From contig JAYTXU010000006.1 in assembly GCA_043742785.1 (NCBI GenBank), positions 5,269-69,268 of the forward strand: a stretch of DNA of 64,000 nt, written 5' to 3'. The DNA comes from Candidatus Omnitrophota bacterium. Its GTDB lineage: Bacteria > Omnitrophota > Gorgyraeia > Zapsychrales > Fredricksoniimonadaceae. Below the pieces are notes generated by a model. It saw only the letters and a program-made list of their open reading frames with translations. It was not told the origin of the DNA and made no database searches. Made by a program: the position numbers and the translations under genes. Below are positions 1,883 through 52,316 of this stretch, in pieces. How positions within the stretch are numbered: the first letter of the stretch is position 1; the number at the start of each line of letters is the position of its first letter.

Positions 1883-2383
1883 TTAAGAAGGATTGCCTTG
1901 CATTTGTTCTACGATGGCGCGCATTTTAGGATTATTCATAAGCTCTTGAGCTTTTGGATTGCCTTCAATGGCTTTAACATCGTGAGACATTACAGCTTTA
2001 ACTAAAGCAGGGTCTGAGAATAATTGCATTAATTGGGGGTCTTGAGCCATCGCCTGAACTTGTTGCATCATTTGAGGGTTATTCATTAATTTAGACTGAG
2101 CAGATTGAATCTTTTGATCAATGTTACCATCAGAAGCAGGAGTAGACCCTTGAGCTTGAGGAACAGGAGCTCCATTAGAAATGCTGGCTACTTGGGAAAC
2201 CAGGATTTTAATATCACCCATTGTAGCAGTGTGAATTGTATAAACGCCGCCACCAACTCCTATTAATTCACCTCTGATTTGAGAGCCATCTTTAAGGGTA
2301 ATTGTTTGGGTTTCTTCCGCAAAGGAATATAGATTGAAGATAGCTACAAAAACTAAACTTATAATCCAAATTTGTTTTTTCAT
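1883..2383 (-). CDS. Secreted protein with small N-terminal beta domain and C-terminal STI1/Hop DP-like repeats
   Basis: Signal peptide MKKQIWIISLVFVAIFNLYSFA|EE. The C-terminus (NPQMMQQVQAMAQDPQLMQLFSDP...NPKMRAIVEQMQGNP) closely resembles the STI1/Hop DP2 motif (DPAMRLILEQMQKDP). Confidence 0.6.
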   Translation of the reverse strand: MKKQIWIISLVFVAIFNLYSFAEETQTITLKDGSQIRGELIGVGGGVYTIHTATMGDIKILVSQVASISNGAPVPQAQGSTPASDGNIDQKIQSAQSKLMNNPQMMQQVQAMAQDPQLMQLFSDPALVKAVMSHDVKAIEGNPKAQELMNNPKMRAIVEQMQGNPS

Positions 2384-2440
2384 AATTAGAGTTTAGCATG
2401 TAAAATCTGGAAATGCAAATCTCAGTAAAATGTGAAAGCT

Positions 2441-2469
2441 TTGACAAATTTTTTGGTCGATGGTATATT
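2441..2469 (+). promoter_or_regulatory. Sigma70-type promoter for the tRNA-Ala/tRNA-Leu pair
   Basis: TTGACA (2441-2446), a 17-nt spacer, then an extended -10 TGgTATATT (2461-2469), about 40 nt upstream of the tRNA. Confidence 0.6.
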
Positions 2470-2508
2470 AACGTCTTATTTTTAGGGGGACGGTTCGTGC
2501 CCCCATTT

Positions 2509-2585
<77 letters not shown>

Positions 2586-2604
2586 AGTTTATTGCAATAG
2601 CTTT

Positions 2605-2688
2605 GCCGAGGTGGCGGAACTGGTATACGCGCTGGTCTCAAAAACCAGTAGCTTCACGGCTGTAAGGGTTCGATTCCCTTCCTCGGCA
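2605..2688 (+). tRNA. tRNA-Leu (anticodon CAA), type II, no encoded CCA
   Basis: Acceptor GCCGAGG/CCTCGGC. Anticodon stem CTGGT/ACCAG with loop CTCAAAA. Long variable arm (TAGCTTCACGGCTGT). T arm AAGGG-TTCGATT-CCCTT. Discriminator A is followed by a T run rather than CCA. Confidence 0.9.
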
Positions 2689-2722
2689 TTTTTTACTTCG
2701 TAAACCTCCTAATCCATTCCAG

Positions 2723-2754
2723 TTGACAATGATTCCTGAGGCTATTATTATAAT
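2723..2754 (+). promoter_or_regulatory. Candidate promoter directly abutting the nifS start codon (possible leaderless mRNA)
   Basis: TTGACA (2723-2728), a 17-nt spacer, then TATTAT (2746-2751), overlapping TATAAT (2749-2754). The ATG is at 2760 and there is no purine-rich SD between. Confidence 0.4.
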
Positions 2755-2759
2755 CGTCT

Positions 2760-3902
2760 ATGAAGAGTCCTATTTATTTAGATTACGCATCAACAACGCC
2801 CACCGAACCGTTAGTATTAGAGGCGATGAGGCCGTTCTTTTTTGAGAGATTCGGCAATGCTTCTAGTCCTCATAGCATTGGCCAAAAGGCCCGCAAAGCC
2901 ATTGAAGATAGCCGTGCTGTTCTGGCTAATTTTATCGGGGCTAAACCTTCCGAAATCATTTTTACCTCAGGAGCAACTGAATCCAATAATCAGGCTGTTT
3001 TAACAATGGCTTTAAGCTTGTTTAACAAAGGCCGTCATGTGATTGTCTCGGCAATTGAGCATCATAGTGTGCTTGAGGGAGCTCATCGTTTAAGTAAGCT
3101 TGGCTTTGAAGTTAGTTTTGTCAAACCGCAAGCGGATGGGATTGTTGATTCAGAGGCTATTGCTGGTTTAATTAAAGAAGACACTATTCTTATTGCCGTT
3201 CATCATGCCAATAATGAGATTGGCACCATTCAGCCTGTAGAAAAAATTGGCGCTTTAGCCCGCGCTAAAGGTATTTGTTTCTTAGTTGATGCTACCCAAA
3301 CAATAGGTCATATTCCAGTCGATGTTCGTCAAATTTCTTGTGATTTATTATCCCTTTCTGCACATAAGTTTTATGGCCCTCAAGGGATTGGAGTTCTGTA
3401 TGTGCGCGAGGGTATTAAAACAGAGCCAAGGCTTTATGGAGGAGATCAGGAAAAGGGGCGTCGTGCTGGCACACTTAATCTTCCTGGAATTGTTGGACTA
3501 GGAAAGGCAGTTGAATTAGTCAAGATTAGTATGGAGAAGGAAGCGAAAGAACAAGCTATTATGCGTGATTATATCATTGAGTATGTACTAAAGAATATTA
3601 ACGGATCGTCGTTGAACGGCCATCGCCAATCGCGTTTACCGAATAATGCTCATTTTTCTTTCGAGAATATTAATGGGGAAGAGTTGGTGACAGCTCTAGA
3701 CATGGCAGGCATTGCTATCTCTCAAGGATCAGCGTGTACTTCAGGTGTTCTTGAGCCATCGCATGTGCTTAAAGCGATAGGGTTGAGCGATCAATTAGCC
3801 TTAGGAAGCCTGCGGGTTAGCTTAGGGCGTTGGACTACTAAAGAAGATGTCGATTATTTTTTAGAGCAGTTGAAATTAAAAGTAGAGAAAATTCGTAAAT
3901 AA
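2760..3902 (+). CDS. Cysteine desulfurase (class V aminotransferase, NifS/IscS-like)
   Basis: N-terminal IYLDYASTTP, PLP-lysine context SLSAHKFYGPQGIGVLY, and catalytic Cys loop SQGSACTSG. Confidence 0.85.
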   Translation: MKSPIYLDYASTTPTEPLVLEAMRPFFFERFGNASSPHSIGQKARKAIEDSRAVLANFIGAKPSEIIFTSGATESNNQAVLTMALSLFNKGRHVIVSAIEHHSVLEGAHRLSKLGFEVSFVKPQADGIVDSEAIAGLIKEDTILIAVHHANNEIGTIQPVEKIGALARAKGICFLVDATQTIGHIPVDVRQISCDLLSLSAHKFYGPQGIGVLYVREGIKTEPRLYGGDQEKGRRAGTLNLPGIVGLGKAVELVKISMEKEAKEQAIMRDYIIEYVLKNINGSSLNGHRQSRLPNNAHFSFENINGEELVTALDMAGIAISQGSACTSGVLEPSHVLKAIGLSDQLALGSLRVSLGRWTTKEDVDYFLEQLKLKVEKIRK

Positions 3903-3999
3903 GGAAATACCCTTCCAGTGACTAGGCCGTCACTGTTCGGGTATAAATTCGCACAGGCTGACTTGACGTCGCTGTGCTCCGAAAGTCAGGTGCTCATTT

Positions 4000-4953
4000 A
4001 TGCACGAAAAACTCATTCATTTTTTAAAACAAACAGATGGCTATGTTTCTGGCGAGGAAATGAGCCAGCAATTAAATATGTCGCGTGCAGCCGTCTGGAA
4101 ATACATGCAGGAATTACGCGCGCAGGGATATGATATTGCAGCAGTGCCTCATTTGGGATATCAATTAGTTTCTTCTCCAGATAAGCTTCTTTCTTACGAG
4201 ATTCAATTTGGTTTGAATACCAAGATCATGGGGCAGAAAATATTTTCATTTGATTCAGTAGGTTCCACCATGGATGAAGCGTTTCGATTGGGCATGGAGG
4301 GTGAACCTGAAGGGACAGTTGTTTGTTCAGAAGCGCAAAGCAAGGGTCGCGGCCGTCTGGGTCGCGTTTGGGTTTCTCCTAAGAGTAAGGGTATTTATTG
4401 TTCCATTATTCTTAAGCCTAAACTTCCTCCCACACAGATGTCACAGGTCACCTTAATGACAGCAGTAGCTTTGGCAGAGGCGGTTCGCAATGTGACAAAG
4501 ATACAGCCAAAGATTAAATGGCCTAATGATTTGTTTATTGGCCCTAGGAAATTAGCAGGAATTTTAACCGAATTGCGCGCCGAGGTGGATCAGGTCAAAT
4601 TTGTCGTCGTAGGAATAGGGATCAATATTAATGCTACCCCTTCGCAGCTATTAGATACAGCTACTTCCTTGAGAATTGAATCCCAGCAATCTATGAATCG
4701 TATTGTAGTTTTTCAAGAACTTTTAAGGAGTATGGAGATTTGGTATAACAAAATCCTTAAAGGAGGCTTCGAAGAAGTCTTACAGTATGCCAGAGAGCAT
4801 TCAGCAACCCTAAAGAAAAGGGTTCGCGTATCTGATTCTAATGGGTATGTGGAAGGGCAGGCTTTTGAAATTGACTCTGATGGAGCTCTTTTGATTCGTC
4901 AGGATAGTGGCAAGATACTTAAAAAAACAGCAGGGGATGTTCTTCCTATATGA
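4000..4953 (+). CDS. birA: Bifunctional biotin-[acetyl-CoA-carboxylase] ligase / bio operon repressor
   Basis: N-terminal winged-HTH (GEEMSQQLNMSRAAVWKYMQELRAQGYDI) plus the ligase motif GRGRLGRVW. It sits immediately upstream of the bio genes. Confidence 0.85.
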   Translation: MHEKLIHFLKQTDGYVSGEEMSQQLNMSRAAVWKYMQELRAQGYDIAAVPHLGYQLVSSPDKLLSYEIQFGLNTKIMGQKIFSFDSVGSTMDEAFRLGMEGEPEGTVVCSEAQSKGRGRLGRVWVSPKSKGIYCSIILKPKLPPTQMSQVTLMTAVALAEAVRNVTKIQPKIKWPNDLFIGPRKLAGILTELRAEVDQVKFVVVGIGININATPSQLLDTATSLRIESQQSMNRIVVFQELLRSMEIWYNKILKGGFEEVLQYAREHSATLKKRVRVSDSNGYVEGQAFEIDSDGALLIRQDSGKILKKTAGDVLPI

Positions 4954-9632: not shown

Positions 9633-10725
9633 TACAAAAGCTAATAAAGATACAATCGTTTTCGTCGCTATGAGCGGCGGGGTCGATTCTTCGGTTGTGG
9701 CAGGCATGGTTAAGGATGCTGGCTACAATACCGTTGGGGTGACCATGTGTTTTAATATTACCCATCCTAATAATACAAAGCCTTCTTGTTGCGGTGTGGA
9801 GGGTATTGGCGACGCTAAGCGTGCAGCAGAAATCTTAGGCATTCCGCACTATGTTTTTAATTTTGCCGGAGACATTAACGATTTTATTATCGAAGATTTT
9901 ACGCGTGAATATTTAAGCGGACGAACACCGAATCCTTGCGTGCGCTGTAATCAACATTTAAAGTTTGGAACACTTTACGATAAGGTTAAGACCCTTGGTG
10001 CGGACTATATCGCTACCGGTCACTACGGTAAGATTGATTTTAATCAAGGGGATAAAAATTTTGAACTTAAAAAAGCAGTGGATGAAAGAAAAGATCAGTC
10101 GTACTTTCTTTATAGTATGAAAAAAGAAACATTACCTTCAGTGCTTTTTCCCTTAGGAGGGTTGACTAAGGTGGAAGTTCGCGAGCTAGCGCGTAAATAT
10201 AATCTTAATACGGCAGATAAAGCGGAAAGTCAGGATATTTGTTTTGTTCCAGCCGAAGGGTATAAGAAGTTTCTTGAAGATCGTGTGGGGAAGGAAACAA
10301 TGATCACAGGAGATTTTATTGATGAAGAAGGAAAGGTTGTTGGACAACATAAAGGAATTGCTTATTATACGATTGGTCAGAGAGATAAATTAGGGATTGC
10401 CTTAGGACATCCTGTTTATGTTTATCGTATTGATCCTAAGAATAATACCGTTCATGTGGGGAATTTAGAAAGACTTTTTTCCAAGGGACTAATTGCTTCT
10501 CAAACAAATTGGGTTAGCATGGAAATTCCTAAAGAAACCATAGAAGTCATGGCTAGAATTCGATATAATTCTCCTGAAGTAAAGGCTTATTTGACAGCAC
10601 TTGATCAACATAAAGTGCGTATTGAATTTGAAGAGCCTCAGAAATCTGTAACGCCAGGACAATCCGTTGTTCTCTACAAGGATGATATTGTTTTAGGCGG
10701 GGCCATTATTGATGAACCTATTTGA
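9619..10725 (+). CDS. mnmA: tRNA 2-thiouridine(34) synthase
   Basis: PP-loop VAMSGGVDSS, NPCVRCN, and ATGHY motifs. Confidence 0.9.
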   Translation: MIANNTKANKDTIVFVAMSGGVDSSVVAGMVKDAGYNTVGVTMCFNITHPNNTKPSCCGVEGIGDAKRAAEILGIPHYVFNFAGDINDFIIEDFTREYLSGRTPNPCVRCNQHLKFGTLYDKVKTLGADYIATGHYGKIDFNQGDKNFELKKAVDERKDQSYFLYSMKKETLPSVLFPLGGLTKVEVRELARKYNLNTADKAESQDICFVPAEGYKKFLEDRVGKETMITGDFIDEEGKVVGQHKGIAYYTIGQRDKLGIALGHPVYVYRIDPKNNTVHVGNLERLFSKGLIASQTNWVSMEIPKETIEVMARIRYNSPEVKAYLTALDQHKVRIEFEEPQKSVTPGQSVVLYKDDIVLGGAIIDEPI

Positions 10726-10739
10726 GGGGAGAGAATTTT

Positions 10740-11492
10740 ATGTTAAGGGTATTTGTTAGTTTTGGAATTCTTCTTTTATTGTCTTTTTCTGCTTTTGCTC
10801 AAGCAACCAATCCAGCTAGAACTTATGAACAACAAAGAGATTCTCAGCCACCAGCAGATGGTGTTTGGCATGTCTATGATCGTGCGGGGAATCTTCAAAA
10901 GGAAGAAACTTATAAGACATATCGTTTGGATGGAGATGTAAAGACGTTTTATCCGACCGGAGGCATTAAATCGATTACTCCATATGTTGATGGTAAACGT
11001 CATGGACTTGAACAAAAGTACTATGAATCAGGCTCCCTGCAGGCTGAAAATATTTATGTTAAGAATGATTTAAAGGGTATTTGTAAAGAGTTTTATCCAA
11101 CCGGTGAATTAAAACGTTCAGCAGATTATGAAAAGGGTCAATTAGAGGGCGTTACAAAAGTTTATTTTCCTAATGGGGCTTTGAAACAACAGTGGAATTA
11201 TAGCCATGCTATTCTAAGCGGTTCACAATTAACCTATGGTGAAGATGGACAAGTTAAAACAGAAGACAATTATCAAAATGGAGTACTTGTTGCTCATAAA
11301 GATTACACCACGGATATTTCTGCTTTAAGTTCTGTCCCTAAGCCTGCTCCAGTGGTTGCTACAGCAAATAAGCCAGTCGTGTCTAGTTTACCAACAACAC
11401 CGCTTAATCAAGCTAATCCTCCAGCGGTTCCACCGTCGGATAAAGGCAATCCTCCTCCTGCAAAAGAAGCAGGCGGGACTTACGGCAAATAA
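10740..11492 (+). CDS. Secreted MORN-variant (YwqK-like) repeat protein with Pro-rich tail
   Basis: Signal peptide MLRVFVSFGILLLLSFSAFA|QA. Repeated Y-x-x-G-x-L-K units (FYPTGGIKS, YYESGSLQA, FYPTGELKR, YFPNGALKQ). GGGGAG SD upstream of ATG 10740. P/A-rich C-terminus. Confidence 0.6.
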   Translation: MLRVFVSFGILLLLSFSAFAQATNPARTYEQQRDSQPPADGVWHVYDRAGNLQKEETYKTYRLDGDVKTFYPTGGIKSITPYVDGKRHGLEQKYYESGSLQAENIYVKNDLKGICKEFYPTGELKRSADYEKGQLEGVTKVYFPNGALKQQWNYSHAILSGSQLTYGEDGQVKTEDNYQNGVLVAHKDYTTDISALSSVPKPAPVVATANKPVVSSLPTTPLNQANPPAVPPSDKGNPPPAKEAGGTYGK

Positions 11493-11507
11493 TAGAAAGC
11501 ATGGTTT

Positions 11508-12779
11508 ATGATTTCATTAAATATGGAGCATTTAAAAGGTTTTGTTAGTGACGATGAAATTAAAGATATTTTTCCTGCTGTCAAGCAAGCCCACGAGGAT
11601 TTAAATACAAGAAAAGGTAAAGGTTCTGAATATACGGGATGGTTAAATCTGCCTTCTGGCATTTCTGATGATTTTCTTAAAGAACTTCAGACTATTTCAG
11701 AAGGACTGCAGAAGGATTGTGATTGTTTGGTTTCTATTGGTATTGGAGGTTCCTATCTTGGCATTCGTGCAGCTATCGAATTCTTAGGAGGGAAGTCAAA
11801 GCTGCCTATCTATTATGCAGGGCACAATATCAGTGGCGAGTATCTGTATGATCTTTTAGAAACACTTAAAAATAAACGGGTGGGCGTTGTCGTAATTTCA
11901 AAGTCCGGTACAACTACAGAACCTGCCATTGCTTTTCGCATCATTAAGAATTTGTTAGAAACAAAATATACTCCCCTTGAATTAAAGAAGCGTATTATTT
12001 GTGTTACCGATGAGAAAAAAGGGGCCTTGCGTCAGATTGCTCTCAAGAATGGTTATAGGTCCTTTGTTATTCCTGATAATGTGGGGGGAAGATTCTCTAT
12101 ATTAACTCCCGTAGGTCTTGTTCCGTTAGCTTTGGCTGGGGTAGATGTAAAGAGTTTGGTCGAGGGAGCGCGTAAAGCAGAGGAAGAATATAAAATCTTA
12201 GATTTAGATAAGAATATTTGTTATCTGTATGCGACTATTCGCAATATTCTCTACAGGAAGGGAAAAAAAATTGAGGTTGTTTCTTCCTTTTATCCTCAGG
12301 TGTATTTTGTTGCGGAATGGTTTAAGCAGCTTTTTGGAGAGAGTGAAGGTAAAGGGGGAAAAGGGATTTTCCCTGCTTCAATGATTTTCTCAACAGATCT
12401 CCACTCCATGGGGCAGCAGATGCAAGATGGTGAACGCAACATCTTTGAAACTTTTATCGCGATCGATAAGCCTTTGCATGATTTGGATGTCCCTCACGAT
12501 GTTGATAATTTGGATGGTTTTAATTATGTGTCCGGCAAAAGCTTTGATTATGTGAATAAGAAAGCTTATGAAGCGACATCTTCGGCGCATTTCGAGGGTG
12601 GAGTGCCTAATATGACGATTACCCTTTGCAAAGCAGATGCCTTTCACTTAGGACATTTGTTCTACTTCTACGAAAAAGCCGTGGCTATTTCTGGTTATAT
12701 TCTGGGTGTCAATCCTTTTGACCAGCCGGGTGTAGAAGCGTACAAAAGCAAAATGTTTACCCTCTTAGGAAAAAAATAA
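11508..12779 (+). CDS. pgi: Glucose-6-phosphate isomerase (short bacterial type)
   Basis: SIGIGGSYLG, ISKSGTTTEP, GGRFS and GESEGK motifs. The start could instead be Met6 (11523). Confidence 0.85.
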   Translation: MISLNMEHLKGFVSDDEIKDIFPAVKQAHEDLNTRKGKGSEYTGWLNLPSGISDDFLKELQTISEGLQKDCDCLVSIGIGGSYLGIRAAIEFLGGKSKLPIYYAGHNISGEYLYDLLETLKNKRVGVVVISKSGTTTEPAIAFRIIKNLLETKYTPLELKKRIICVTDEKKGALRQIALKNGYRSFVIPDNVGGRFSILTPVGLVPLALAGVDVKSLVEGARKAEEEYKILDLDKNICYLYATIRNILYRKGKKIEVVSSFYPQVYFVAEWFKQLFGESEGKGGKGIFPASMIFSTDLHSMGQQMQDGERNIFETFIAIDKPLHDLDVPHDVDNLDGFNYVSGKSFDYVNKKAYEATSSAHFEGGVPNMTITLCKADAFHLGHLFYFYEKAVAISGYILGVNPFDQPGVEAYKSKMFTLLGKK

Positions 12780-12787
12780 CTTAAGCC

Positions 12788-14386
12788 ATGTCTGTCGTTA
12801 TTCAAGTTCGATCCCTGACAAAAACCTATCATTCTCAGTCAGGGATTGTCCATGCTTTAAATGGCATTGATATTGATGTTGAGCAAGGTGAGATCTTAGG
12901 CATTCTCGGGCCCAACGGGGCGGGTAAGACAACTTTCTTAAATACTCTTTCTACTCTTTTACTTCCTGATAGCGGTCAAATTCAAATTCTAGGGATTGAA
13001 TTGAAATCTCAGAACTTTTCAGAGATTCGTCGGTTGATTAATATGTCTTCCGGTTATCCTAACTATGCTTTTAGTTTAACGGTTAAAGAAAACTTAGAAT
13101 TTTACGGCCGTCTATACGATTTATCGGGGGAAGCTCTTGAAAAAAAGGTGGGGGAGGTCATAGAGCTTTTTTCTTTAAATGAATATGCTAATCGTCGTTT
13201 TGATGAACTATCTTCAGGAACAAAACAGCGTTTATCCTTAGCTAAATCGTTACTGAATGATCCTAAAATTCTTTTTTTGGATGAACCAACGATTGGCCTT
13301 GATCCAGATGTAGCTCTTAAAACTAGGCAGATTATTAAGGGCATTCTTAAGCAAAGACAAGTGACCGTGCTTTTGACCAGTCACAACATGGATGAAGTCG
13401 AAGACATGGCAGGAAGAGTGGTCTTCATTCAAAAGGGAAGAATTATTAAACTATCCTCTATTAGTGAGTTAAAGCGCCTGCACAATACGGATGATTTAGA
13501 GCAGGTGTTTATCCACTTAGCTGCGCAGAAAAATAGTGACAGGCACTATTTTTCTGGTGAATGGCAAAAGATAGAAAAAATAGTGCCTGTCACTAATTTA
13601 AATATTAGCAATTGGTTTAATCGTTGTCGATCCTTTACTACACGAAGCTTCATTTTTGCCACGCGTAATTTATTTGTGATGACTGATTTATTCTTTTGGC
13701 CGTTGATTAGTTTGGTTTCGATTGGGCTTATGGCTAAGTTCGTGAATTTAGGCGAGGGGATGCTAGCCTTTATCATGACAGGGACTTTAGCTGCTGGTGT
13801 TCTACAAATTGTTCAGCTGGATGTAGGCTATACCATCCTTTATGAACTGTGGTCGAAGAGTCTTAAGCATACCTTACTGACACCGGTGGGCGTTACCGAG
13901 GGAGTTTTTGGGACCTGGGTGGCAGGGATAGTTCGCGGCTTAGTTGCATTTGGTCTCTTAGCGGTTGCTGCAAATTTAGGATTTGGTTTTCATCTGCCGG
14001 GATTTTTTGTGACGATGCTGTTTTTCTTGGGGCTTTTTGTTTGTGCTTTGATTTTAGGAATCATCGTTAATATTCTTATCCTGTCTTTTGGACAGAAGGT
14101 GGAGATCACGGCTTGGATGTTTGCACATTTATTTATGATCCTTTGCGGGATATATTATCCTGTTGATATTTTGCCGCCCTTTTTTCAAGGTATGGCTATG
14201 ATGATACCGATCACGCATTTCCTGGAATTCTTCCGTCAATCCTACGGTTTTAAAGCGCATAGCGCGCATCCTTTATTGGTTGGGTTTGCTTTAAGTGGGA
14301 TATATTTGGTTATATTCTTACGATTATTAGCCAATGCCTATACCCGTGCTAGGCGTAAAGGGGTCATTATTCGTCTTTCAGAATAG
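12788..14386 (+). CDS. Fused ABC transporter: N-terminal ATPase plus C-terminal ABC-2 type permease
   Basis: Walker A GPNGAGKTT, signature LSSGTKQRL, Walker B LFLDEPTIGLD. After a linker, about 6 hydrophobic helices follow in the same ORF (aa ~290-520). Confidence 0.8.
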   Translation: MSVVIQVRSLTKTYHSQSGIVHALNGIDIDVEQGEILGILGPNGAGKTTFLNTLSTLLLPDSGQIQILGIELKSQNFSEIRRLINMSSGYPNYAFSLTVKENLEFYGRLYDLSGEALEKKVGEVIELFSLNEYANRRFDELSSGTKQRLSLAKSLLNDPKILFLDEPTIGLDPDVALKTRQIIKGILKQRQVTVLLTSHNMDEVEDMAGRVVFIQKGRIIKLSSISELKRLHNTDDLEQVFIHLAAQKNSDRHYFSGEWQKIEKIVPVTNLNISNWFNRCRSFTTRSFIFATRNLFVMTDLFFWPLISLVSIGLMAKFVNLGEGMLAFIMTGTLAAGVLQIVQLDVGYTILYELWSKSLKHTLLTPVGVTEGVFGTWVAGIVRGLVAFGLLAVAANLGFGFHLPGFFVTMLFFLGLFVCALILGIIVNILILSFGQKVEITAWMFAHLFMILCGIYYPVDILPPFFQGMAMMIPITHFLEFFRQSYGFKAHSAHPLLVGFALSGIYLVIFLRLLANAYTRARRKGVIIRLSE

Positions 14387-14497
14387 AAAACAGGGATAGG
14401 CTCTATTTCTTGGTGATCTATCGAAAAAAGTAGTACCTGTCGTTATTTTAATGTAAAATGAAATATATTTATTAACAGGATTTAAAGGAGTGATATT

Positions 14498-14671
14498 ATG
14501 GGCGGACGTACAGGAGAGTTGATTTTACTTTTGCTTGTTTTTGTTTTGCTTTTTGGTGCACAGAAACTGCCAGAAATCGGCGCTGCTTTAGGTAAGGCCA
14601 TCCGTGAATTTAAGAAAAACGTTAATTCCGTTGAAGAGGATGTTAAAAAACCTATCGAGCAAAAGCCGTAA
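14498..14671 (+). CDS. tatA: Twin-arginine translocase subunit TatA/E (57 aa; below the ORF-track cutoff)
   Basis: Translated by hand: MGGRTGELILLLLVFVLLFGAQKLPEIGAALGKAIREFKKNV.... This is the canonical TatA TM helix followed by the FG..KLP hinge and an amphipathic helix. AAAGGAG SD lies 7 nt upstream, and the stop abuts the tatC start. Confidence 0.85.
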   Translation: MGGRTGELILLLLVFVLLFGAQKLPEIGAALGKAIREFKKNVNSVEEDVKKPIEQKP

Positions 14672-15382
14672 GTGAAATTATCAGCTTATTTTCAATCACT
14701 TTTAATCCATTTGGATGAACTGCGTCAGCGATTAATAAAGATAGCGCTTGGTTTTATAGTTGCGACGCTTGTTTGTTATAATTTCGTTGGTCAGGTGTTA
14801 CCTTGGATTATTAAACCAGCCGGTAAACTTGTTTTTACTTCTCCCTTAGATGGATTTTCTGCTTACATGACCTTGGCTGCTGTGATGGGGTTTATTGTTT
14901 CGCTACCTTGGACGGTTTATCATGTTTGGGCTTTTATTGCGGGAGGTCTTAAATCAACAGAGAAAAAAGCTGTTTATATTTTTGCTCCTCTTTCGTTAAT
15001 GTTTTTCCTGTTAGGAGTAGCCTTTTCTTTTTATATTGCCATTCCTTTAACGTATCGATTTTTAATGAGCTTCACAACAGATTATATGCAGCCCATGATT
15101 ACGGTGAGCAATTACATGGGGTTTGTAGCAAATATGCTGATTGCGTTTGGAGTAACCTTTGAATTGCCTCTGGTCTTGGCATTTTTAGCTAAGATTGGCA
15201 TTGCTACTCCAGAATATCTGCGTCAAAAACGCCGCCATGCGATGATGATTATTTTTATTGTTGCAACCATCATTACGCCTCCAGATGTTGTCTCTCAGGT
15301 TTTACTTGCCGTTCCGCTAATTGTTTTATATGAGATTGGGATTGTGTTGGTGGGGATGACATATAAACATAAAACCCTCTGA
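14672..15382 (+). CDS. tatC: Twin-arginine translocase subunit TatC
   Basis: GTG start directly after the tatA stop. HLDELRQRL N-terminal motif, six hydrophobic segments, and TPPDVVSQ motif. Confidence 0.85.
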   Translation: MKLSAYFQSLLIHLDELRQRLIKIALGFIVATLVCYNFVGQVLPWIIKPAGKLVFTSPLDGFSAYMTLAAVMGFIVSLPWTVYHVWAFIAGGLKSTEKKAVYIFAPLSLMFFLLGVAFSFYIAIPLTYRFLMSFTTDYMQPMITVSNYMGFVANMLIAFGVTFELPLVLAFLAKIGIATPEYLRQKRRHAMMIIFIVATIITPPDVVSQVLLAVPLIVLYEIGIVLVGMTYKHKTL

Positions 15383-15400
15383 TGAACTTCAGAGGGTTTT
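15371..15400. terminator. Bidirectional rho-independent terminator
   Basis: Perfect 12-bp stem AAAACCCTCTGA (15371-15382) / TCAGAGGGTTTT (15389-15400) with a 6-nt loop. The A-tract/T-tract symmetry lets it serve tatC (+) and the convergent micro-gene (-). Confidence 0.8.
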
Positions 15401-15426
15401 ATGATAAACAAATTTGAAAACAGTTC

Positions 15427-15477
15427 TTACTTCTTTTTAGCTGTCTTCTTTTTAGCTGTCTTTTTCTTTGTAGCCAT
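15427..15477 (-). CDS. Candidate 16-aa lysine-rich micro-protein MATKKKTAKKKTAKKK
   Basis: On the minus strand: TTGCAT (15546-15541), a 16-nt spacer, TAATAT (15524-15519), then AGGAG 9 nt before ATG 15477. There are 16 sense codons containing a 15-nt direct repeat (ACAGCTAAAAAGAAG x2) and a TAA stop. The bidirectional terminator lies about 27 nt downstream. Confidence 0.45.
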   Translation of the reverse strand: MATKKKTAKKKTAKKK

Positions 15478-46081: not shown

Positions 46082-49000
46082 ATGCTTAGACGCTTTATTG
46101 CGAGCATCATTATCATAGCATTCTTGACTACAGGTGTTTTTCCGCCAAGTCGAAGCTATGCTCAGTCAGTAGTATCTCTGCCAGAACCTGGCACAATGGT
46201 TTCCTTAAGCCAAAGCTTTGAACCAGTCTTAATTAAAGGATTGACTGTACATAAAGATAATCCCTTCATGTTCGATTTTGTGGTGGATACGGGGAATTCT
46301 AAATTATCCACCCAAGATGCAGAACTAAGAACTCAAGCTGACCGTTTAATCAAATATTTCTTTGCTTGTCTCACCATCCCTGAAAAAGACCTTTGGGTTA
46401 ATCTTTCTCCGTATGAAAAAGATCGTATGGCTCCTGAGGCCTTGGGGCAAACCGCTTTAGGAAGAGACCTTTTATCCGAAGATTATATTCTTAAACAATT
46501 AACAGCTTCGCTTATTTATCCTGAAAAAGATTTAGGTCGAGAATTTTGGGATAAAGTTTTCACAAAGGCTCAGCAGAAGTATGGAACAACAAATATTCCG
46601 GTGAATACATTTAATAAGGTTTGGATTTTAGCCGATAAAGCCACCGTCTATGAACATGGGCAGACGGCTTTTGTGGTAGATGGACATTTGAAGGTGCTTT
46701 TAGAAGAAGACTACTTAGCAATGTCCAAACATTCTTCCACTGTCATGCCCGTGAAAACGGGCATCCAGAATATGGATATCTCGCTCCTGCCTGTCGGCAG
46801 GCAGGTTCGCGGGAATGACAAGGAATCGGTTAACACCATTGGTTCACAAATAGTGCGAGACATCGTCATCCCTGAACTTGAAAAAGAAGTTAATTCAGGT
46901 AAGAACTTTTCCACGCTCCGTCAAATCTTTAATTCACTTATCCTTGCCAGCTGGTACAAAAAGAATCTCAAAGAAGCGCTGTTAAATCAGATCTATGCTG
47001 ACAAAAACACTGTCAAAGGCGTTGACTTAAGCGATCCTTCCGTCAAAGAACAAATCTATCAGCAATATCTCAAAGCGTACAAGAAGGGCGTGTTTAACTA
47101 TATCAAGGAAGACGCTCAAGTTAATGGCCCAGCTATTCCAAGAAAGTATTTTTCGGGTGGTTTTGATGTATCTCCTGCGATGTTAAGCGTTGTTCACTTT
47201 GCACCAAGGAATTTAGAAAGCGGGGGTAGTCTTGTAAATTTCAAAGTTATGACAGGGTTAAATGGAAACGGGGTTCAAAACGATTTAGAGTTAACTAAAA
47301 AGGAAACAGCAAACTCTCAAGATTTATTTAAAGTAAAAAAAACACTCGAAAGGCTTTACAAAGAAATCATCACCTTAGGGGAAGATTTAAAGAATCAAGA
47401 TCCAGACTATTATTATAATTCTACAACTAGACTGATGGCTGAAGCGCAGAGCATTTATGATCAAAGATCCTCTATAGATAGCGTCGTTAGTTTGACAGCG
47501 AGAAATAAGCAGTTACAGGAGATTGCGGATGAACTTGATAAACGCTGGCAAGAAATTCAAGAACAAGAAAGAAGGAATGTAGAAAGAGATCCTAAGGCTA
47601 ATACAGTTAACAGAATTAAGAGTTCTAACATTGATTTAGATGCCGCCAAGAATGATTCAAGTGCGGCAATGTTGACGACTATTAATAAGCTGTTAGGAAG
47701 CACTCCACAGTTAGGAATGACTCCGCAGGAATTAGCAGGTGAAATAGAATCTACACTTAGAAATCCAAACAGTGGAAATATTCCAAGTATCTTTATAATT
47801 TCAGATGAGCACGGAACAATAGATAAATTTGATTTTTTATTATTGGATATGTTTCGTTCTGTTCCTGCTGGACAAAAAATACCCGCTAATTTTGTTTTAG
47901 ATCCCAACAAGACAATTGATGAACAATTTAATCAATTTGAAATAAAACTTTCTGATTTTAGAAAGCAATTGTTTATACATAATCTAGGTGATTTTGTTGA
48001 TCGTGGGCCTTTTGGTATTAAGGTTCTTTTACGTTCAAAAGAATTAATAGAAGCGAATATTTCAGATTTTATCATTGGGAATCATGATCAATGGATGTTT
48101 ATGAATTTGATAGGTATGCACCTTCCTTTTTATGATGGTTTTGAATTTTATGGATATAAGGATAGTTATGGTGCACAAAAAGGTGGAGGAGACGTCAGAT
48201 TTTTATTACAACAGCTTCACAAAGATAAACCTGATACTAGAAAGCTATCTTGGTGGGCAAAAGAATTGTATGAATTTAGAGAATTTCATCAAACTCAACA
48301 GAAAAACAGATGGAATAAATCAGTCAAAGAAGTAGAAAACATGTTTGAAACAATAGTTAATGGAATGTCTGAAGATGGTAAGAAGAGATGGTCTCGTACG
48401 ACTGCTTCTGGTCGGGTTTGGAATAAGTTAAGAGGATTTAATCCGGATGTAGGGGATGTTTCAACGGGAGTTAAAGCTGTCGGCTTAGTATCAATAGTAT
48501 GGTGGGAAAATTTATTAAAAGAATTTGAAGTTATCTATGATCATCTTTATGTAGAAAGAAAGATTGAACTTGATTCCGCAAAGCAAGAAGCTTGGCTTTC
48601 TGCAATTAATTTAATAAAAAATCATATTATTCCAGGACTTAAAAAAACTTTAGAAGAGCATATTGATCCTGATAAAGGGGGAACTCAACCATGGTGGCGT
48701 ATTTTTGAAGCTATTAATAGTCAAAATTATACATCTCCTGAATGGTGGGCCATGGATTGGGCTTATCATAATGGATGGGGAACCTCTGTGTTTAAGGAAA
48801 TTAATGATACTTATCATGGGGGAGAGCAAGTAGTTACTCCTGCTAATTATTTAGATGACAATTCTACTTTACAAGGAGTAAGAATATTAAAAGAAGCCAC
48901 TCAATTTTTTAAGCAAAAATATAACCTTCATCTTAGGGATATTATGCAAACAGATATGCTTCATGCGTTTTTGCCAATAGATCCCGATACTGGGGAATTT

Positions 49001-52000
49001 TATTTTAATTACAGAGCAAAACATTATCGTGGTAAAGGCGGAGAAAGAGCATCACCTTTTTGGGAAGGGCTTGATGCTATTGCCAAAGATATAAGAGATG
49101 CTCCTGATAATGAGACTCTTATCAAAGTCATTCAAGAGGCTATAACAATAGTCAATGGTTGGTACGCAGATAATACTACTGAAGCTAAGGTTAGTCATGT
49201 TGCAAGAGCTTTAAGAGATGTTGGTCTTAAAAAAGTGTTGGATGCTAATGGTCTTAATCGTTTCATTACAGGCCATTTACCTATGCATGATTTCTTGAAA
49301 TTGACTGAAGACGAACGAAGGGTTATCACTGGACATTTAATTGTTACTGAGAATGGAAGACAGGTTATAGCTTTTAGTGACTCTGGGGCTGGGCCTAAAT
49401 TTGGAGGTGGAGCAAAATTTCTTGTTACTGACAAAAATGGTTTTAGACTTCGAGGTCTTCCAGGAAAGAATTCAAAAATAGTTGTCGATAGCCCTTCAAC
49501 TGTCATTTATAAGAGAGCAAAAGGACCTACAACCCAAGAAGAACTAAGAACAGTTTTTTTAAATGATACATCGATACCCCCAGATGTTTTTCTTAGAACT
49601 GTTTTAGAAAACATTAACGAAAACGCAGCAATGACAACAAAAGAAATTCATGTGTCGGGTGTTGATGTTTATTCTCTGGAAGTCCCTCAAACAGAGAAGC
49701 ACTATAGTGAGGTGCTTTTTCCTGATGGTAAAAAATGGACTTTAAAAGGGACTATGGCTCGTGGGGATAGTGTCCGCGTGGAAGAGCCAGAGGGGAACTT
49801 TAAGACGACTTTATTTCCAGGCAGTGAACCTTTAGTTATAAAAGATTCTCTAGACGTTCCTCTTGTTAAAGTATTCTGGTTTAATGGGCTTTCTTTTAAT
49901 AGTCTTACAGGGCACTCATTAGATTTTAGGGTAAGGTCATTTTATGATGCTGCAATGAATGTATCAAATAGAAGCGATGAGATAGATCAAGTTCGGACGG
50001 CTTTAGTAAATCTCTTTTTTGCCAGAAATGCTTCGGTACTTACATCTTCTGTAGAGACAGCCGAAGAATTAAAGAAGAATATTCGGTTAGCTAGAGAAAA
50101 ACTATCTCAGAATGAATTGTGGGCTAAAACTAAGGCTGTACGATTATTACAAGAAAGAATAGCAAGTTTGGAATCTAATCCTAATGGAATGTTGGGCTTT
50201 ACTCCTGAATTTATAGATCAACAAATTCAAGCAATTCAAAAACCATCAATTACTGTATCACCGATCAGCGCCGCAATGACGGCTGAAGACGTGAAACAGT
50301 TTGTAGACCGGTTTAACGAGTTAGTTGAAAGCCATAGTTATGGACATAAAATTAAAGCTGAGTTTAATCTCAATTTAAAAGGAGCTCCTCAGGAAGGTTT
50401 TATTGATAGAGGAAGAGGATCGATATTTACTATTTGGCCCAATGTAGATACCCTTGTACTAGCGGAATATATACGTAAAAGTATGAATATGCAGGGATTC
50501 CGTGAGGAAGATATTGAAGCAATCACAGCTCGTCTTAAATTTCCGACTTTAGCCTTAACAGACAATAACATGGAAATTCCATTTGGCCACTACAGAGACA
50601 TTAAAGCGGATGACGGCACTCCTTTGAGAGTAGAACATAATGTCAATGAAAAGCAGGCATTCGTAAGCATTAAGACGGTGAAAGGCGGTTGGTATTGGCA
50701 CCATGAATTTAAAGAAAATCATCCAGATAATCAGGTGGGTGTTTTTGGAAGCATTTTTTGGATGTTTGATGGGAAAGAAAAAACTTTTAGTTTATTTTGG
50801 TGTAAGGAACATCCTAAAAACGTTGTTGTGCCTGAACATGTGACTAATGAGTTACGGAAAACAAATCCTAGTATATACACTGTTCTTGGCATTACGGAGG
50901 CTCCTGCTCGTTCTATTATTGTGGAGAATTTTCGTATAGTGAGTGCTGCAGATACAGTAGAAATAAAGAATAAATTTTTTCATCCCATGACTATTAACAT
51001 AAAAGACTTTTTTGAATTTCTAACGCGTAATAACGCCTCGAAAACAACTAAGAAGATAACGTTTACAGAGGGTTCAAGTCTTGGTGATTTAAACCTACCA
51101 GTAAGAGCACAAACTTATATCTTTCTTCATGAGATTAAAACAATAAAACAATTTTTGGAAATATTTCCTACAGAACAAAGCTTGTATCAATTCGTTAATC
51201 ATAATTTTGGCAAAGTAACCAAAAAACAGATTATAGAGGAGTTTAAGAGGGTAGGTTTTCCTTTAAAGCCCGACGCCGCAATGACGGCAGAAATAAAGAG
51301 TCAAACAACTATCAACTTTGTAAATGGTCAGATTACTCATACCTATCCAAGAGAGATAGGGGTATCCATAGGGGGAAAAACAGCAATTCTTGTGTTGGAA
51401 TCAACAACGGATATTGAAAATAGATTAATGCAGGTGTTTCAAACACATATTCCATCATCTTTGTCGGTGAACTATATTGTCAAAGGAGGTGCAGGTGAAA
51501 AGATTCCAGTTGTTTTGAAGCTCAATCTTCGCAGTTCTTTGATGGAAGAAAAAGTGGATTATGGTTGGGGGGCAGAGCTGGATAGTCAATCTCAGAATGC
51601 TTTGGCTCAAGTTTCTGCAAGCGCGGCAATGACTACACAATTTATTCCGGGTCAGCTTCTTACTCAAGCAAATATTGCTGAAGTAGGAGAGGAAATTTAT
51701 CACACATCTTTTCCAGTAGTGTATAAGTCTACACAACGCTTGGATCTTCAACTAGTCACCAGAACAGGGAGCAGAACTCTGAAAATAGATATTTACAATG
51801 GTCCTGATGGAAAGAATTTTATAGGAAGTAGAGAGTTTTATTTGACTGGTCGAAATGAAGGAGAAATAAGAGAAAAGGCAATAGAAAAAGCTAATCTTTC
51901 TAAGACAATGACACAAAAAACATGGACATGGCTTGGGCAGCGCCATCGTTATAATCAAGGGATTGAAGATATTGTTCAGGAAGCAATAAAAGATAGCGCC

Positions 52001-52228
52001 ATGAATGTCAATGAAGTTGGCGGTATCGATTTAAACTCAGCTAATATGGGAATGATTATTCAAAAAGATGCTAATGGCGGGGTACAGGTAACTTTTGATC
52101 CAGCATTAATTGAACGCATTAAGATTCAGGGGATTCAATCTGTTGAACCAATTATTATTAATATTACTCCTATAGCAGATGTTCGTCCTTTATTGGGACT
52201 TGGATCCGAACTCGCAGGAGTAGCTTAA
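46082..52228 (+). CDS. Giant (2,048 aa) secreted mosaic protein with an embedded metallophosphoesterase; otherwise unassigned
   Basis: Uninterrupted ORF with an AAGGA SD. Signal peptide MLRRFIASIIIIAFLTTGVFPPSRSYA|QS. Phosphoesterase motifs SDEHG (aa 574-578), GDFVDRG (636-642), GNHD (666-669) and GH (1064-1065). Recurrent AAM(T/N/L) junctions. GGIDLN-containing C-terminus. Confidence 0.85.
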   Translation: MLRRFIASIIIIAFLTTGVFPPSRSYAQSVVSLPEPGTMVSLSQSFEPVLIKGLTVHKDNPFMFDFVVDTGNSKLSTQDAELRTQADRLIKYFFACLTIPEKDLWVNLSPYEKDRMAPEALGQTALGRDLLSEDYILKQLTASLIYPEKDLGREFWDKVFTKAQQKYGTTNIPVNTFNKVWILADKATVYEHGQTAFVVDGHLKVLLEEDYLAMSKHSSTVMPVKTGIQNMDISLLPVGRQVRGNDKESVNTIGSQIVRDIVIPELEKEVNSGKNFSTLRQIFNSLILASWYKKNLKEALLNQIYADKNTVKGVDLSDPSVKEQIYQQYLKAYKKGVFNYIKEDAQVNGPAIPRKYFSGGFDVSPAMLSVVHFAPRNLESGGSLVNFKVMTGLNGNGVQNDLELTKKETANSQDLFKVKKTLERLYKEIITLGEDLKNQDPDYYYNSTTRLMAEAQSIYDQRSSIDSVVSLTARNKQLQEIADELDKRWQEIQEQERRNVERDPKANTVNRIKSSNIDLDAAKNDSSAAMLTTINKLLGSTPQLGMTPQELAGEIESTLRNPNSGNIPSIFIISDEHGTIDKFDFLLLDMFRSVPAGQKIPANFVLDPNKTIDEQFNQFEIKLSDFRKQLFIHNLGDFVDRGPFGIKVLLRSKELIEANISDFIIGNHDQWMFMNLIGMHLPFYDGFEFYGYKDSYGAQKGGGDVRFLLQQLHKDKPDTRKLSWWAKELYEFREFHQTQQKNRWNKSVKEVENMFETIVNGMSEDGKKRWSRTTASGRVWNKLRGFNPDVGDVSTGVKAVGLVSIVWWENLLKEFEVIYDHLYVERKIELDSAKQEAWLSAINLIKNHIIPGLKKTLEEHIDPDKGGTQPWWRIFEAINSQNYTSPEWWAMDWAYHNGWGTSVFKEINDTYHGGEQVVTPANYLDDNSTLQGVRILKEATQFFKQKYNLHLRDIMQTDMLHAFLPIDPDTGEFYFNYRAKHYRGKGGERASPFWEGLDAIAKDIRDAPDNETLIKVIQEAITIVNGWYADNTTEAKVSHVARALRDVGLKKVLDANGLNRFITGHLPMHDFLKLTEDERRVITGHLIVTENGRQVIAFSDSGAGPKFGGGAKFLVTDKNGFRLRGLPGKNSKIVVDSPSTVIYKRAKGPTTQEELRTVFLNDTSIPPDVFLRTVLENINENAAMTTKEIHVSGVDVYSLEVPQTEKHYSEVLFPDGKKWTLKGTMARGDSVRVEEPEGNFKTTLFPGSEPLVIKDSLDVPLVKVFWFNGLSFNSLTGHSLDFRVRSFYDAAMNVSNRSDEIDQVRTALVNLFFARNASVLTSSVETAEELKKNIRLAREKLSQNELWAKTKAVRLLQERIASLESNPNGMLGFTPEFIDQQIQAIQKPSITVSPISAAMTAEDVKQFVDRFNELVESHSYGHKIKAEFNLNLKGAPQEGFIDRGRGSIFTIWPNVDTLVLAEYIRKSMNMQGFREEDIEAITARLKFPTLALTDNNMEIPFGHYRDIKADDGTPLRVEHNVNEKQAFVSIKTVKGGWYWHHEFKENHPDNQVGVFGSIFWMFDGKEKTFSLFWCKEHPKNVVVPEHVTNELRKTNPSIYTVLGITEAPARSIIVENFRIVSAADTVEIKNKFFHPMTINIKDFFEFLTRNNASKTTKKITFTEGSSLGDLNLPVRAQTYIFLHEIKTIKQFLEIFPTEQSLYQFVNHNFGKVTKKQIIEEFKRVGFPLKPDAAMTAEIKSQTTINFVNGQITHTYPREIGVSIGGKTAILVLESTTDIENRLMQVFQTHIPSSLSVNYIVKGGAGEKIPVVLKLNLRSSLMEEKVDYGWGAELDSQSQNALAQVSASAAMTTQFIPGQLLTQANIAEVGEEIYHTSFPVVYKSTQRLDLQLVTRTGSRTLKIDIYNGPDGKNFIGSREFYLTGRNEGEIREKAIEKANLSKTMTQKTWTWLGQRHRYNQGIEDIVQEAIKDSAMNVNEVGGIDLNSANMGMIIQKDANGGVQVTFDPALIERIKIQGIQSVEPIIINITPIADVRPLLGLGSELAGVA
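46741..46820. mobile_element. MITE/REP-like 80-bp palindromic element embedded in frame in the giant CDS
   Basis: Imperfect 15-bp terminal inverted repeats TGTCATGCCCGTGAA (46741-46755) / TTCGCGGGAATGACA (46806-46820), matching 13/15. Internal hairpins ATGCCCG-N6-CGGGCAT (46745-46764) and CTGCCTG-N4-CAGGCAG (46787-46804). It is GC-rich against an AT-rich gene and is translated as VMPVKTGIQ...RGNDK. Confidence 0.6.
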
Positions 52229-52291: not shown

Positions 52292-52316
52292 AACCCCGCA
52301 GCATTACGGCGGGGTT
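52292..52316 (+). terminator. Probable intrinsic terminator of the giant gene
   Basis: Stem AACCCCGC (52292-52299) / GCGGGGTT (52309-52316) with a 9-nt loop, followed by AAAATTTAT. The U-tract is weak. Confidence 0.5.

Follow-up and report, generated by a model that had tools for sequence, protein, structure and literature searches.

What is a GC-rich palindrome doing inside an open reading frame (ORF), and how has the frame stayed open across it? The question is raised by a 64,000-nucleotide stretch of DNA from a Candidatus Omnitrophota bacterium (assembly GCA_043742785.1, contig JAYTXU010000006.1), called the window here and numbered from its first letter. The palindromic block (46742..46819, + strand, GTCAT...ATGAC) lies within the gene for a 2048-aa Omnitrophota protein (46082..52228, + strand), which was defined from its ORF, a Pfam scan, and a homologue search. 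Our answer is that the block is probably a relic doublet of two hairpin units of a published type, the Neisseria Transformation Sequence (NTS) and the Ssn-related motifs (SRM) that generalise it. The doublet is arranged like a REPIN and sits in a tolerant, disordered loop of an Omnitrophota-specific N-terminal domain, with the ORF kept open.

How is the block built?

The in-frame unit is 46742-46819, that is, 78 nt or 26 codons encoding VMPVKTGIQNMDISLLPVGRQVRGND (V221-D246). Its arms, TGTCATGCCCGTGAA (46741-46755) and TTCGCGGGAATGACA (46806-46820), are 15 nt long, 87% complementary, and 50 nt apart, and between their outer ends lie two hairpins, ATGCCCGT/ACGGGCAT at 46745-46764 and CCTGCCTG/CAGGCAGG at 46786-46805, each with a perfect 8-bp stem and a 4-nt loop. 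The GC content of the block is 0.577 versus 0.389 in the rest of the N-terminal domain, a difference of 19 points. Translation runs through it as ...SSTVMPVKTGIQNMDISLLPVGRQVRGNDKES... and the ORF (46082-52228) stays open. A sequence-only reading of this locus had described an 80-bp GC-rich block with 15-bp imperfect terminal inverted repeats and two internal perfect 7-bp hairpins, read straight through by the ORF. Its arms, its GC content, its pair of hairpins, and its translation were correct; the in-frame length is 78 nt rather than 80 nt, and the stems are 8 bp rather than 7.

The block folds strongly whichever way it is treated: at -49.1 kcal/mol as RNA (z = -6.2) and at -25.6 and -22.7 kcal/mol as single-stranded DNA (ssDNA) of the two strands (z ~ -6.3). 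A 14-nt head motif, GTCATKCCCGYGAA, has two exact matches in inverted orientation, and none in 100 dinucleotide-preserving shuffles. Because there is a head at each end, the block consists of two units placed tail to tail. Unit A (46741..46768, + strand) and unit B (46772..46819, - strand) are separated at their tails by a 3-nt spacer, AAT (46769..46771), read directly from the sequence. This is the arrangement of a REPIN, including the folding of the whole block, and two inverted hairpin units are a better reading of it than one miniature inverted-repeat transposable element (MITE).

Unit A, TGTCATGCCCGTGAAAACGGGCATCCAG, is an intact hairpin unit of NTS/SRM type, recognised by its motif match and its ssDNA fold (-10.7 kcal/mol, z = -6.4). 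It is made up of a GTC head, a perfect 8-bp stem, a 4-nt loop, and a C after the palindrome (GTC-ATGCCCGT-GAAA-ACGGGCAT-C), and so has the GTC directly 5' and the C directly 3' of the palindrome that define the oriented ssDNA hairpin of NTS/SRM. The degenerate SRM motif matches the 64-kb window once, at unit A, compared with a mean of 0.15 in shuffles. Relative to the canonical unit, TGTCATTCCCGCGAAAGCGGGAATCCAG, two stem pairs differ and both changes are fully compensated. The tail context of the block, CCAGAATA, is shared with a doublet at another Omnitrophota locus, L064.

Unit B reads TGTCATTCCCGCGAA-CCTGCCTGCCGACAGGCAGG-AGCGAGATATCCAT on its own strand, where a 20-nt mini-hairpin (CCTGCCTGTCGGCAGGCAGG, 46786..46805, with its perfect 8-bp stem) is nested in the loop of the unit; it was delimited by alignment with the nested units of L104, L126, L100, and L062. 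The same 20-mer is likewise nested inside hairpin units of L104 and L125. The head of unit B is intact, with an exact minus-strand match at 46806-46819 and an nhmmer E of 7e-4. Its tail is degenerate and its own outer stem no longer pairs; the nested insert and the decayed tail prevent a match to the SRM motif. From its sequence, unit B appears to be decaying.

Which repeat family do the units belong to?

The NTS, CGTCATTCCCGCGMAVGCGGGAATCYRG, contains dRS3. SsnA, a GIY-YIG nuclease of 94 aa with a single domain, has as its substrate the hairpin that the NTS forms in ssDNA (Chenal et al. 2025, Nat Commun, PMC11893778). A description of the NTS/Ssn system has existed only since 2025 and draws chiefly on Proteobacteria; in the available part of that paper the repeats lie around genes or flank them. 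The paper generalises the NTS to the SRM pattern HGTCWYN(0-2)YYVSBRHN(0-5)WNVSBRGN(0-2)RNCYNB and reports that the ssn gene is typically flanked by repeats. In the same account, cleavage by SsnA needs three nucleotides 5' of the palindrome, binding needs the C just after it, and alteration or extension of the loop is tolerated (PMC11893778).

Of the 28 positions of the NTS consensus, the canonical Omnitrophota unit matches 27. Over 30 nt it shows 100% identity with the NTS/dRS3 repeats of Neisseria, with at least 40 places per record in N. gonorrhoeae; near-identical copies occur in Sphingopyxis (Sphingomonadales), Azospirillum, Photobacterium, Legionella, and other records, and an exact 25-mer of the unit is present in 95 stretches of IMG/VR contigs. 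These matches establish both the identity of the family and its dispersal in other phyla. They also bear out the earlier view of the core as part of an intergenic repeat family widespread among bacteria: it occurs in intergenic Omnitrophota DNA as well as in Neisseria and other records, and it is the one published as NTS/SRM.

An NTS-ssn-NTS arrangement was seen in one place only, at 2940-3380 of L182 (IMG/VR contig 3300012964_000516, GC 0.69). There, a 97-aa GIY-YIG ORF (PF01541; 100% identical to P0121) has exact NTS units on both sides, and the only close relatives of its Ssn-like product among the 120 matches listed are of Sphingomonadales type. Two small UPF0213-like GIY-YIG ORFs were found in Omnitrophota (L141 2620-3289 and L153 2257-2600), neither of them flanked by units. 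At its end, the L153 ORF carries a CCCTCCCCCTTGATAGGGGAGG hairpin that belongs to the PPLxKGG repeats. The question arises whether other hairpin families may pair with other small GIY-YIG nucleases.

Where else in Omnitrophota does the unit occur?

Family counts were made with a family-specific pattern over 162 Omnitrophota loci (1.93 Mb), cited here by L numbers. The canonical family has 82 units in this DNA, distributed over 37 of the loci, and none in five shuffles. A generic pattern, GTCAT plus any 9-nt palindrome, was too noisy (81 matches versus about 24 in shuffles) and was replaced. In these related loci the unit is asymmetric: (T)GTCAT forms its head, CCA(G/T) its tail, and the part between them is a palindrome, for example ATTCCCGCG...CGCGGGAAT. 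Three subfamilies, of 23, 28, and 53 bp, can be distinguished, together with several units that carry nested inserts. The densest loci, of 14-21 kb each, are L056 with 9 units and L002 with 15 heads.

What is conserved in these units is the hairpin itself, as follows from the covariation of its stem positions. Position 3 is paired as T-A in 64 cases, C-G in 17, and G-C in 3, with 8 mismatched, and position 6 as C-G in 78, G-C in 7, T-A in 2, and A-T in 1, with 4 mismatched.

Doublets such as ours are over-represented. Eight tail-to-tail pairs were observed versus 1.4 expected by random placement, and one head-to-head pair versus 1.35; spacers of the doublets at other loci vary in length and content. 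A doublet is carried in frame in the chorismate-binding enzyme gene of L064, where it encodes VIPAEAGIQNRINSDLDPRFRGDD, and others occupy the same loop as ours in the N-domain genes of L056 and L058. At L064 (14592-14690, within the isochorismate-synthase-like ORF 14028-15467), the in-frame tail-to-tail doublet is accompanied by an extra partial head, the whole encoding VIPAEAGIQNRINSDLDPRFRGDDNSRSFGND, and lies just upstream of the Chorismate_bind domain.

Complete units are often preceded by tandem partial heads (L002 2340-2405, 10265-10330, 10757-10825, and 1735-1815; L142 6994-7037). Inside genes these follow one another every 21 bp (TGTCATTCCCGCCTCTTCCGC...) and are translated into repeated heptads like SSAVIPA; between genes the spacing is 23 bp.

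In other Omnitrophota, copies lie between genes as well as within them, and 47 of the 82 units are inside long ORFs. The canonical unit leaves five of its six reading frames open, the sixth having a TGA from GAATGAC. The footprints of the N-terminal domain make up 10.1% of the sampled DNA and hold 37 of the 82 units, an enrichment of about 4.5-fold (p = 3.5e-16) in counts that are not independent events, as paralogs inherit insertions. Within genes the units recur at four to five sites: after FDFIVDTGN, in the host loop, after QVYADKxKVxG, after AYKKGVFNYIKEE, and in the GGIDLN region at the C-terminus. In our 423-aa model of the domain, the first four sites fall in loops between helices or between strands.

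What kind of protein and loop carry the block?

The host protein is laid out as a ~370-aa N-terminal domain, a Metallophos domain (aa 570-732), which is its sole Pfam match, and a C-terminal region of GGIDLN type. The N-terminal domain represents a very large Candidatus Omnitrophota family, with at least 1384 matches among the scored candidates and several paralogs per genome, and its members are large multidomain proteins with predicted signal peptides. No Pfam domain covers the N-terminal region among the homologue matches listed, and a Foldseek search of the PDB gave no fold match for it (best E = 0.7). N-domain proteins look modular, with the N-terminal domain followed by a variable enzyme part and a conserved C-terminal GGIDLN... 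region; the enzyme part is Metallophos in the host protein, and a response regulator, NUDIX, PFK, or HAD in other family members.

The block lies in a hypervariable loop of this domain (46715..46867, + strand), between ...KVLLEEDY and PELEKEVN. Among 169 homologues the loop is 22-82 aa long (median 36), and it is 51 aa in the host protein. Excising the 78 nt leaves LAMSKHSSTKESVNTIGSQIVRDIV, whose 25 aa are close to the shortest homologues. In most of the 169 the block peptide is absent or different, and some relatives carry related peptides at the site.

An AlphaFold2 model of the N-terminal 423 aa, built from a 97-sequence alignment, has a mean predicted local distance difference test score (pLDDT) of 74.8 and a predicted template modelling score of 0.75. 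Residues 221-245 are the only stretch with pLDDT < 50 in that part of the model. The stretch coincides with the block peptide, which is modelled as coil between the confident helices 208-218 and 247-272. The position of the block in a disordered loop is thus as plain as its absence from most homologues. The evidence supports the in-frame insertion of a dispersed palindromic repeat into a loop that tolerates it. The sequence-only reading had proposed just such an insertion into this domain and had suggested checking whether orthologs lack the segment; loop variation, model, and alignment agree with it on both counts, and the excised loop is near the family minimum.

The same loop receives other repeats as well. 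A GC-rich perfect hairpin is present in 39 of 164 loops of this site versus 1 and 9 for control segments of matched size taken from this domain, and the closest relatives have other hairpin repeats at the position of the block. The host loop is a general sink for hairpins of several families.

Other GC-rich hairpin families were observed in this loop in L005, L086, L088, L011, L008, L084, L093, L085, L001, L017, L042, and L057. They include CCCCTC..GAGGGG, giving the peptide PPLxKEGxRG; GTCATTGCGAGCGAAGCGAAGCAATC, giving VIASEAKQS; the doublet GTCATCCTGAGCGAAGCGAAGGATC...CCTCAGAATGAC, giving VILSEAKDL..SATPQND; and further families of AGLEPAPT and GPTQGRPLQND type. The VIASEAKQS- and VILSEAKDL-type families have the GTCAT head in common. 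Just after the loop (window 46862-46876, and in many loci), the native motif IVIPELEKE is encoded as GTCATCCCTGAA, which resembles the repeat head GTCATTCCCGCGAA.

For the closest comparison we turn to the gene neighbourhood. The host gene lies downstream of hrcA-grpE-dnaK-dnaJ and a Zn-ribbon ORF, and the order DnaJ_C, Zn_ribbon_8, N-domain gene recurs in L001/L004 (metagenome-assembled genome ELA163). The L001/L004 gene, with ~70% amino-acid identity, is therefore the syntenic ortholog. Alignment with its loop leaves a 24-nt gap over most of the head and stem of unit A and a 12-nt gap in the nested hairpin. At the position of unit B, L001 has a different hairpin unit, and it is without unit A.

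How did the block get there, and what else could it be?

The block would have arrived by whatever process spreads these repeats, probably via ssDNA and hairpins, a process that in Neisseria and other bacteria appears tied to the small GIY-YIG ssDNA nuclease Ssn. It would have entered a structurally tolerant, disordered loop and may have persisted there with its 78-nt length and its reading frames keeping the ORF open. For the protein it would amount to 26 extra, neutral loop residues; as DNA, unit A could still offer a hairpin to an Ssn-like nuclease or to recombination. The mobility of the element is something we infer.

Several points weigh against this account and should be kept in view. 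The 64-kb window contains no other copy of the unit. The flanks of the block, CCACT and AAGGA (...TTCCAC before it and AAGGAA... after it), have no direct repeat in common, so that no target-site duplication or other insertion footprint is found where the sequence-only reading had left a duplication uncertain. Genome and metagenome contig scans gave no near-identical allele with an empty site; the best reached 68-70% amino-acid identity, and presence or absence is therefore judged only against paralogs and the one syntenic ortholog. A GIY-YIG regular expression and phmmer found no Ssn gene of cd10448 type, either in the window or across the 1.93 Mb of sampled Omnitrophota DNA, and the Ssn link therefore rests on other taxa. 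The in-gene copies may descend from few insertions spread by paralog duplication, in which case counts and enrichment overstate the number of events. Finally, part of the unit B tail is common to the syntenic ortholog, so the block is not one clean insertion. The ortholog having part of that tail and no unit A, the block would have been assembled in more than one step, and the alignment suggests that more than one event built it.

The alternative that survives best, though we consider it unlikely, is that the block is a functional intragenic hairpin site, be it a hotspot for an ssDNA nuclease or recombination or an RNA structure, kept for the deletion, conversion, and shuffling of modular paralogs. 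The enrichment of units in the N-terminal domain and their recurrence at four to five loop sites would fit such a role, but enrichment can also stem from loop tolerance and from inheritance via paralog duplication. The stem of unit A has been kept perfect through its two compensated changes, whereas unit B seems to be in decay. A preference for one strand would also fit the role: the head strand is the coding strand for 41 of the 47 in-ORF units and not for the other 6 (p = 4e-5 against the 3:2 expected from open frames), a bias to which the non-independence of paralogs may contribute. As to an RNA structure, Rfam has no match at 46500-47100, and no other sign of an RNA element was seen.

A further point on this side comes from L002, in which one of two paralogs (2085-4133 and 10001-11950) looks like the other with a ~410-bp in-frame deletion. 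By blastn, 2051-2415 matches 9990-10341 and 2336-2707 matches 10753-11124. The deletion junction falls exactly in the arrays of NTS-type units at sites 1 and 2, from which it follows that intragenic repeats mediated recombination. In Neisseria, too, NTS repeats are reported to flank variable genes and to modulate the recombination of transforming DNA (PMC11893778, available part). However, one recombination event shows that these repeats are able to recombine, not that they are maintained for that purpose, and no Ssn gene was found in the Omnitrophota sample. The wider proposal, that Omnitrophota use loop-embedded NTS/SRM hairpins as ssDNA-nuclease or recombination sites driving in-frame deletion, conversion, and cassette exchange among hundreds of modular paralogs, strikes us as somewhat less probable still; on that view the doublet of the window would be one of these sites and not passive junk.

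Could the block instead be a single classical MITE, an 80-bp non-autonomous derivative of an insertion sequence (IS) with 15-bp terminal inverted repeats, moved whole by a DDE transposase? The formal terminal repeats are there, the size is in range, and the whole block folds as one long hairpin. Against this, its ends are the heads of an asymmetric unit that occurs mostly as a singlet (only 16 of 149 heads are in tail-to-tail pairs), unit A alone matches the published hairpin repeat motif, and the spacers of doublets at other loci vary in length and content. No target-site duplication was seen at the block or at the other tail-to-tail doublets of the sampled loci. No parent IS with GTCAT... 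ends, and no transposase, turned up in the loci, in which no systematic search for one was made. Nested insertions at hairpin loops, together with the lack of a target-site duplication, argue for an ssDNA- or hairpin-directed process over DDE transposition. We regard the classical MITE as quite improbable; of the earlier label "MITE/REP-like" the second half is apt, and the first gives way, since the terminal repeats are the heads of two units.

That the block is native coding sequence, palindromic by chance, and its loop peptide an evolved part of the domain can hardly be credited: the ORF is intact, the length is a multiple of three, the window has a single copy, and some relatives have related peptides at the site, but the same nucleotide sequence occurs in intergenic DNA, in unrelated genes, and in other phyla, most of the homologues lack the peptide or have a different one, the segment is modelled as disordered, its GC content stands far above that of the rest of the domain, and its changes compensate one another in the DNA stem instead of conserving the peptide.

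How does the block compare with known repeats?

The probable relic NTS/SRM doublet has much in common with its Neisseria counterparts: the unit sequence and the oriented hairpin (GTC upstream, C downstream) are the same, the family has many copies in related Omnitrophota DNA and is present across phyla, and the nested insert in the loop of unit B resembles the loop extension that SsnA substrates tolerate, as far as the available part of the source paper describes them. It differs in being intragenic and translated, when no intragenic copies are mentioned in that part of PMC11893778; in being an inverted doublet with a decayed partner; in its host phylum, Omnitrophota not being among the taxa named there; and in having no ssn gene found near the block or in the sampled relatives.

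Likeness to repetitive extragenic palindromic (REP) sequences and REPINs lies in the short imperfect palindromes, which stand alone or in inverted pairs able to form one longer hairpin, such pairs being over-represented. REPs are overwhelmingly extragenic, however, with 14 of 1,067 16-mers overlapping genes in SBW25 (Bertels & Rainey 2011, PMC3116915), whereas our block is translated and more than half of the family units, 47 of 82, are in long ORFs. In other taxa the unit is associated with a GIY-YIG nuclease, whereas REPs and REPINs are mobilised by RAYT, an HUH/Y1 transposase. Pfam scans of the host gene, 10 neighbouring ORFs, and ORF 12788-14386 revealed no transposase; no search directed at RAYT was made.

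The Rickettsia palindromic elements (RPEs) are palindromic repeats inserted in frame into unrelated protein-coding genes (Ogata et al. 2000, reviewed in PMC10969869), and the sequence-only reading was right to invoke them. The phenomenon is the same, an in-frame peptide segment compatible with the fold. RPEs differ in size (~100-150 bp) and in host, an alphaproteobacterial genus, and belong to unrelated sequence families; the Omnitrophota units are NTS/SRM hairpins of 23-53 bp, concentrated in few loops of one very large paralogous family. In the literature we found nothing on repeat-derived peptides (VIPAKAGIQ and others) or on palindromic or hairpin repeats in Omnitrophota.

What other palindromes does the window hold?

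A second in-frame palindromic block, this one AT-rich, is present at window 13526-13599 inside ORF 12788-14386 (+). It consists of CAGAAAAATAGTGACAGGCACTATTTTTCTG and, 47 nt later, its inverted copy AAAAAATAGTGCCTGTCACTAATTT, with 24-nt arms that are 96% complementary. It corresponds to aa 246-271, in the linker between ABC_tran and ABC2_membrane of a fused ABC transporter. L074 and L126 contain similar sequences, but no significantly dispersed family emerged, the 4 matches comparing with 2-4 in shuffles.

Besides the two hairpins of the GC-rich block, the 64 kb has just four others that are perfect and GC-rich, and the stretch is otherwise repeat-poor. One at 15375-15396 overlaps the 3' end of ORF 14672-15382 and another, at 52293-52315, lies just 3' of the giant gene; both look like intrinsic terminators.

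What does the finding mean?

The block belongs to a known repeat family, in an in-frame context that is unusual but precedented. As an example of a gene that tolerates selfish-looking repeat DNA, it is genuine but not very remarkable. It extends the NTS hairpin unit, almost unchanged in sequence, to an uncultured phylum, the Omnitrophota. There, genes carry the unit in frame, in the manner of Rickettsia palindromic elements, and units pile up in few disordered loops of one very large protein family. Annotators can now account concretely for peptides like VIPAKAGIQ and RLRGND that keep turning up in metagenomic proteins. More generally, protein loops can be built from repeat DNA, and this case is a testable place for questions of repeat spread and recombination.

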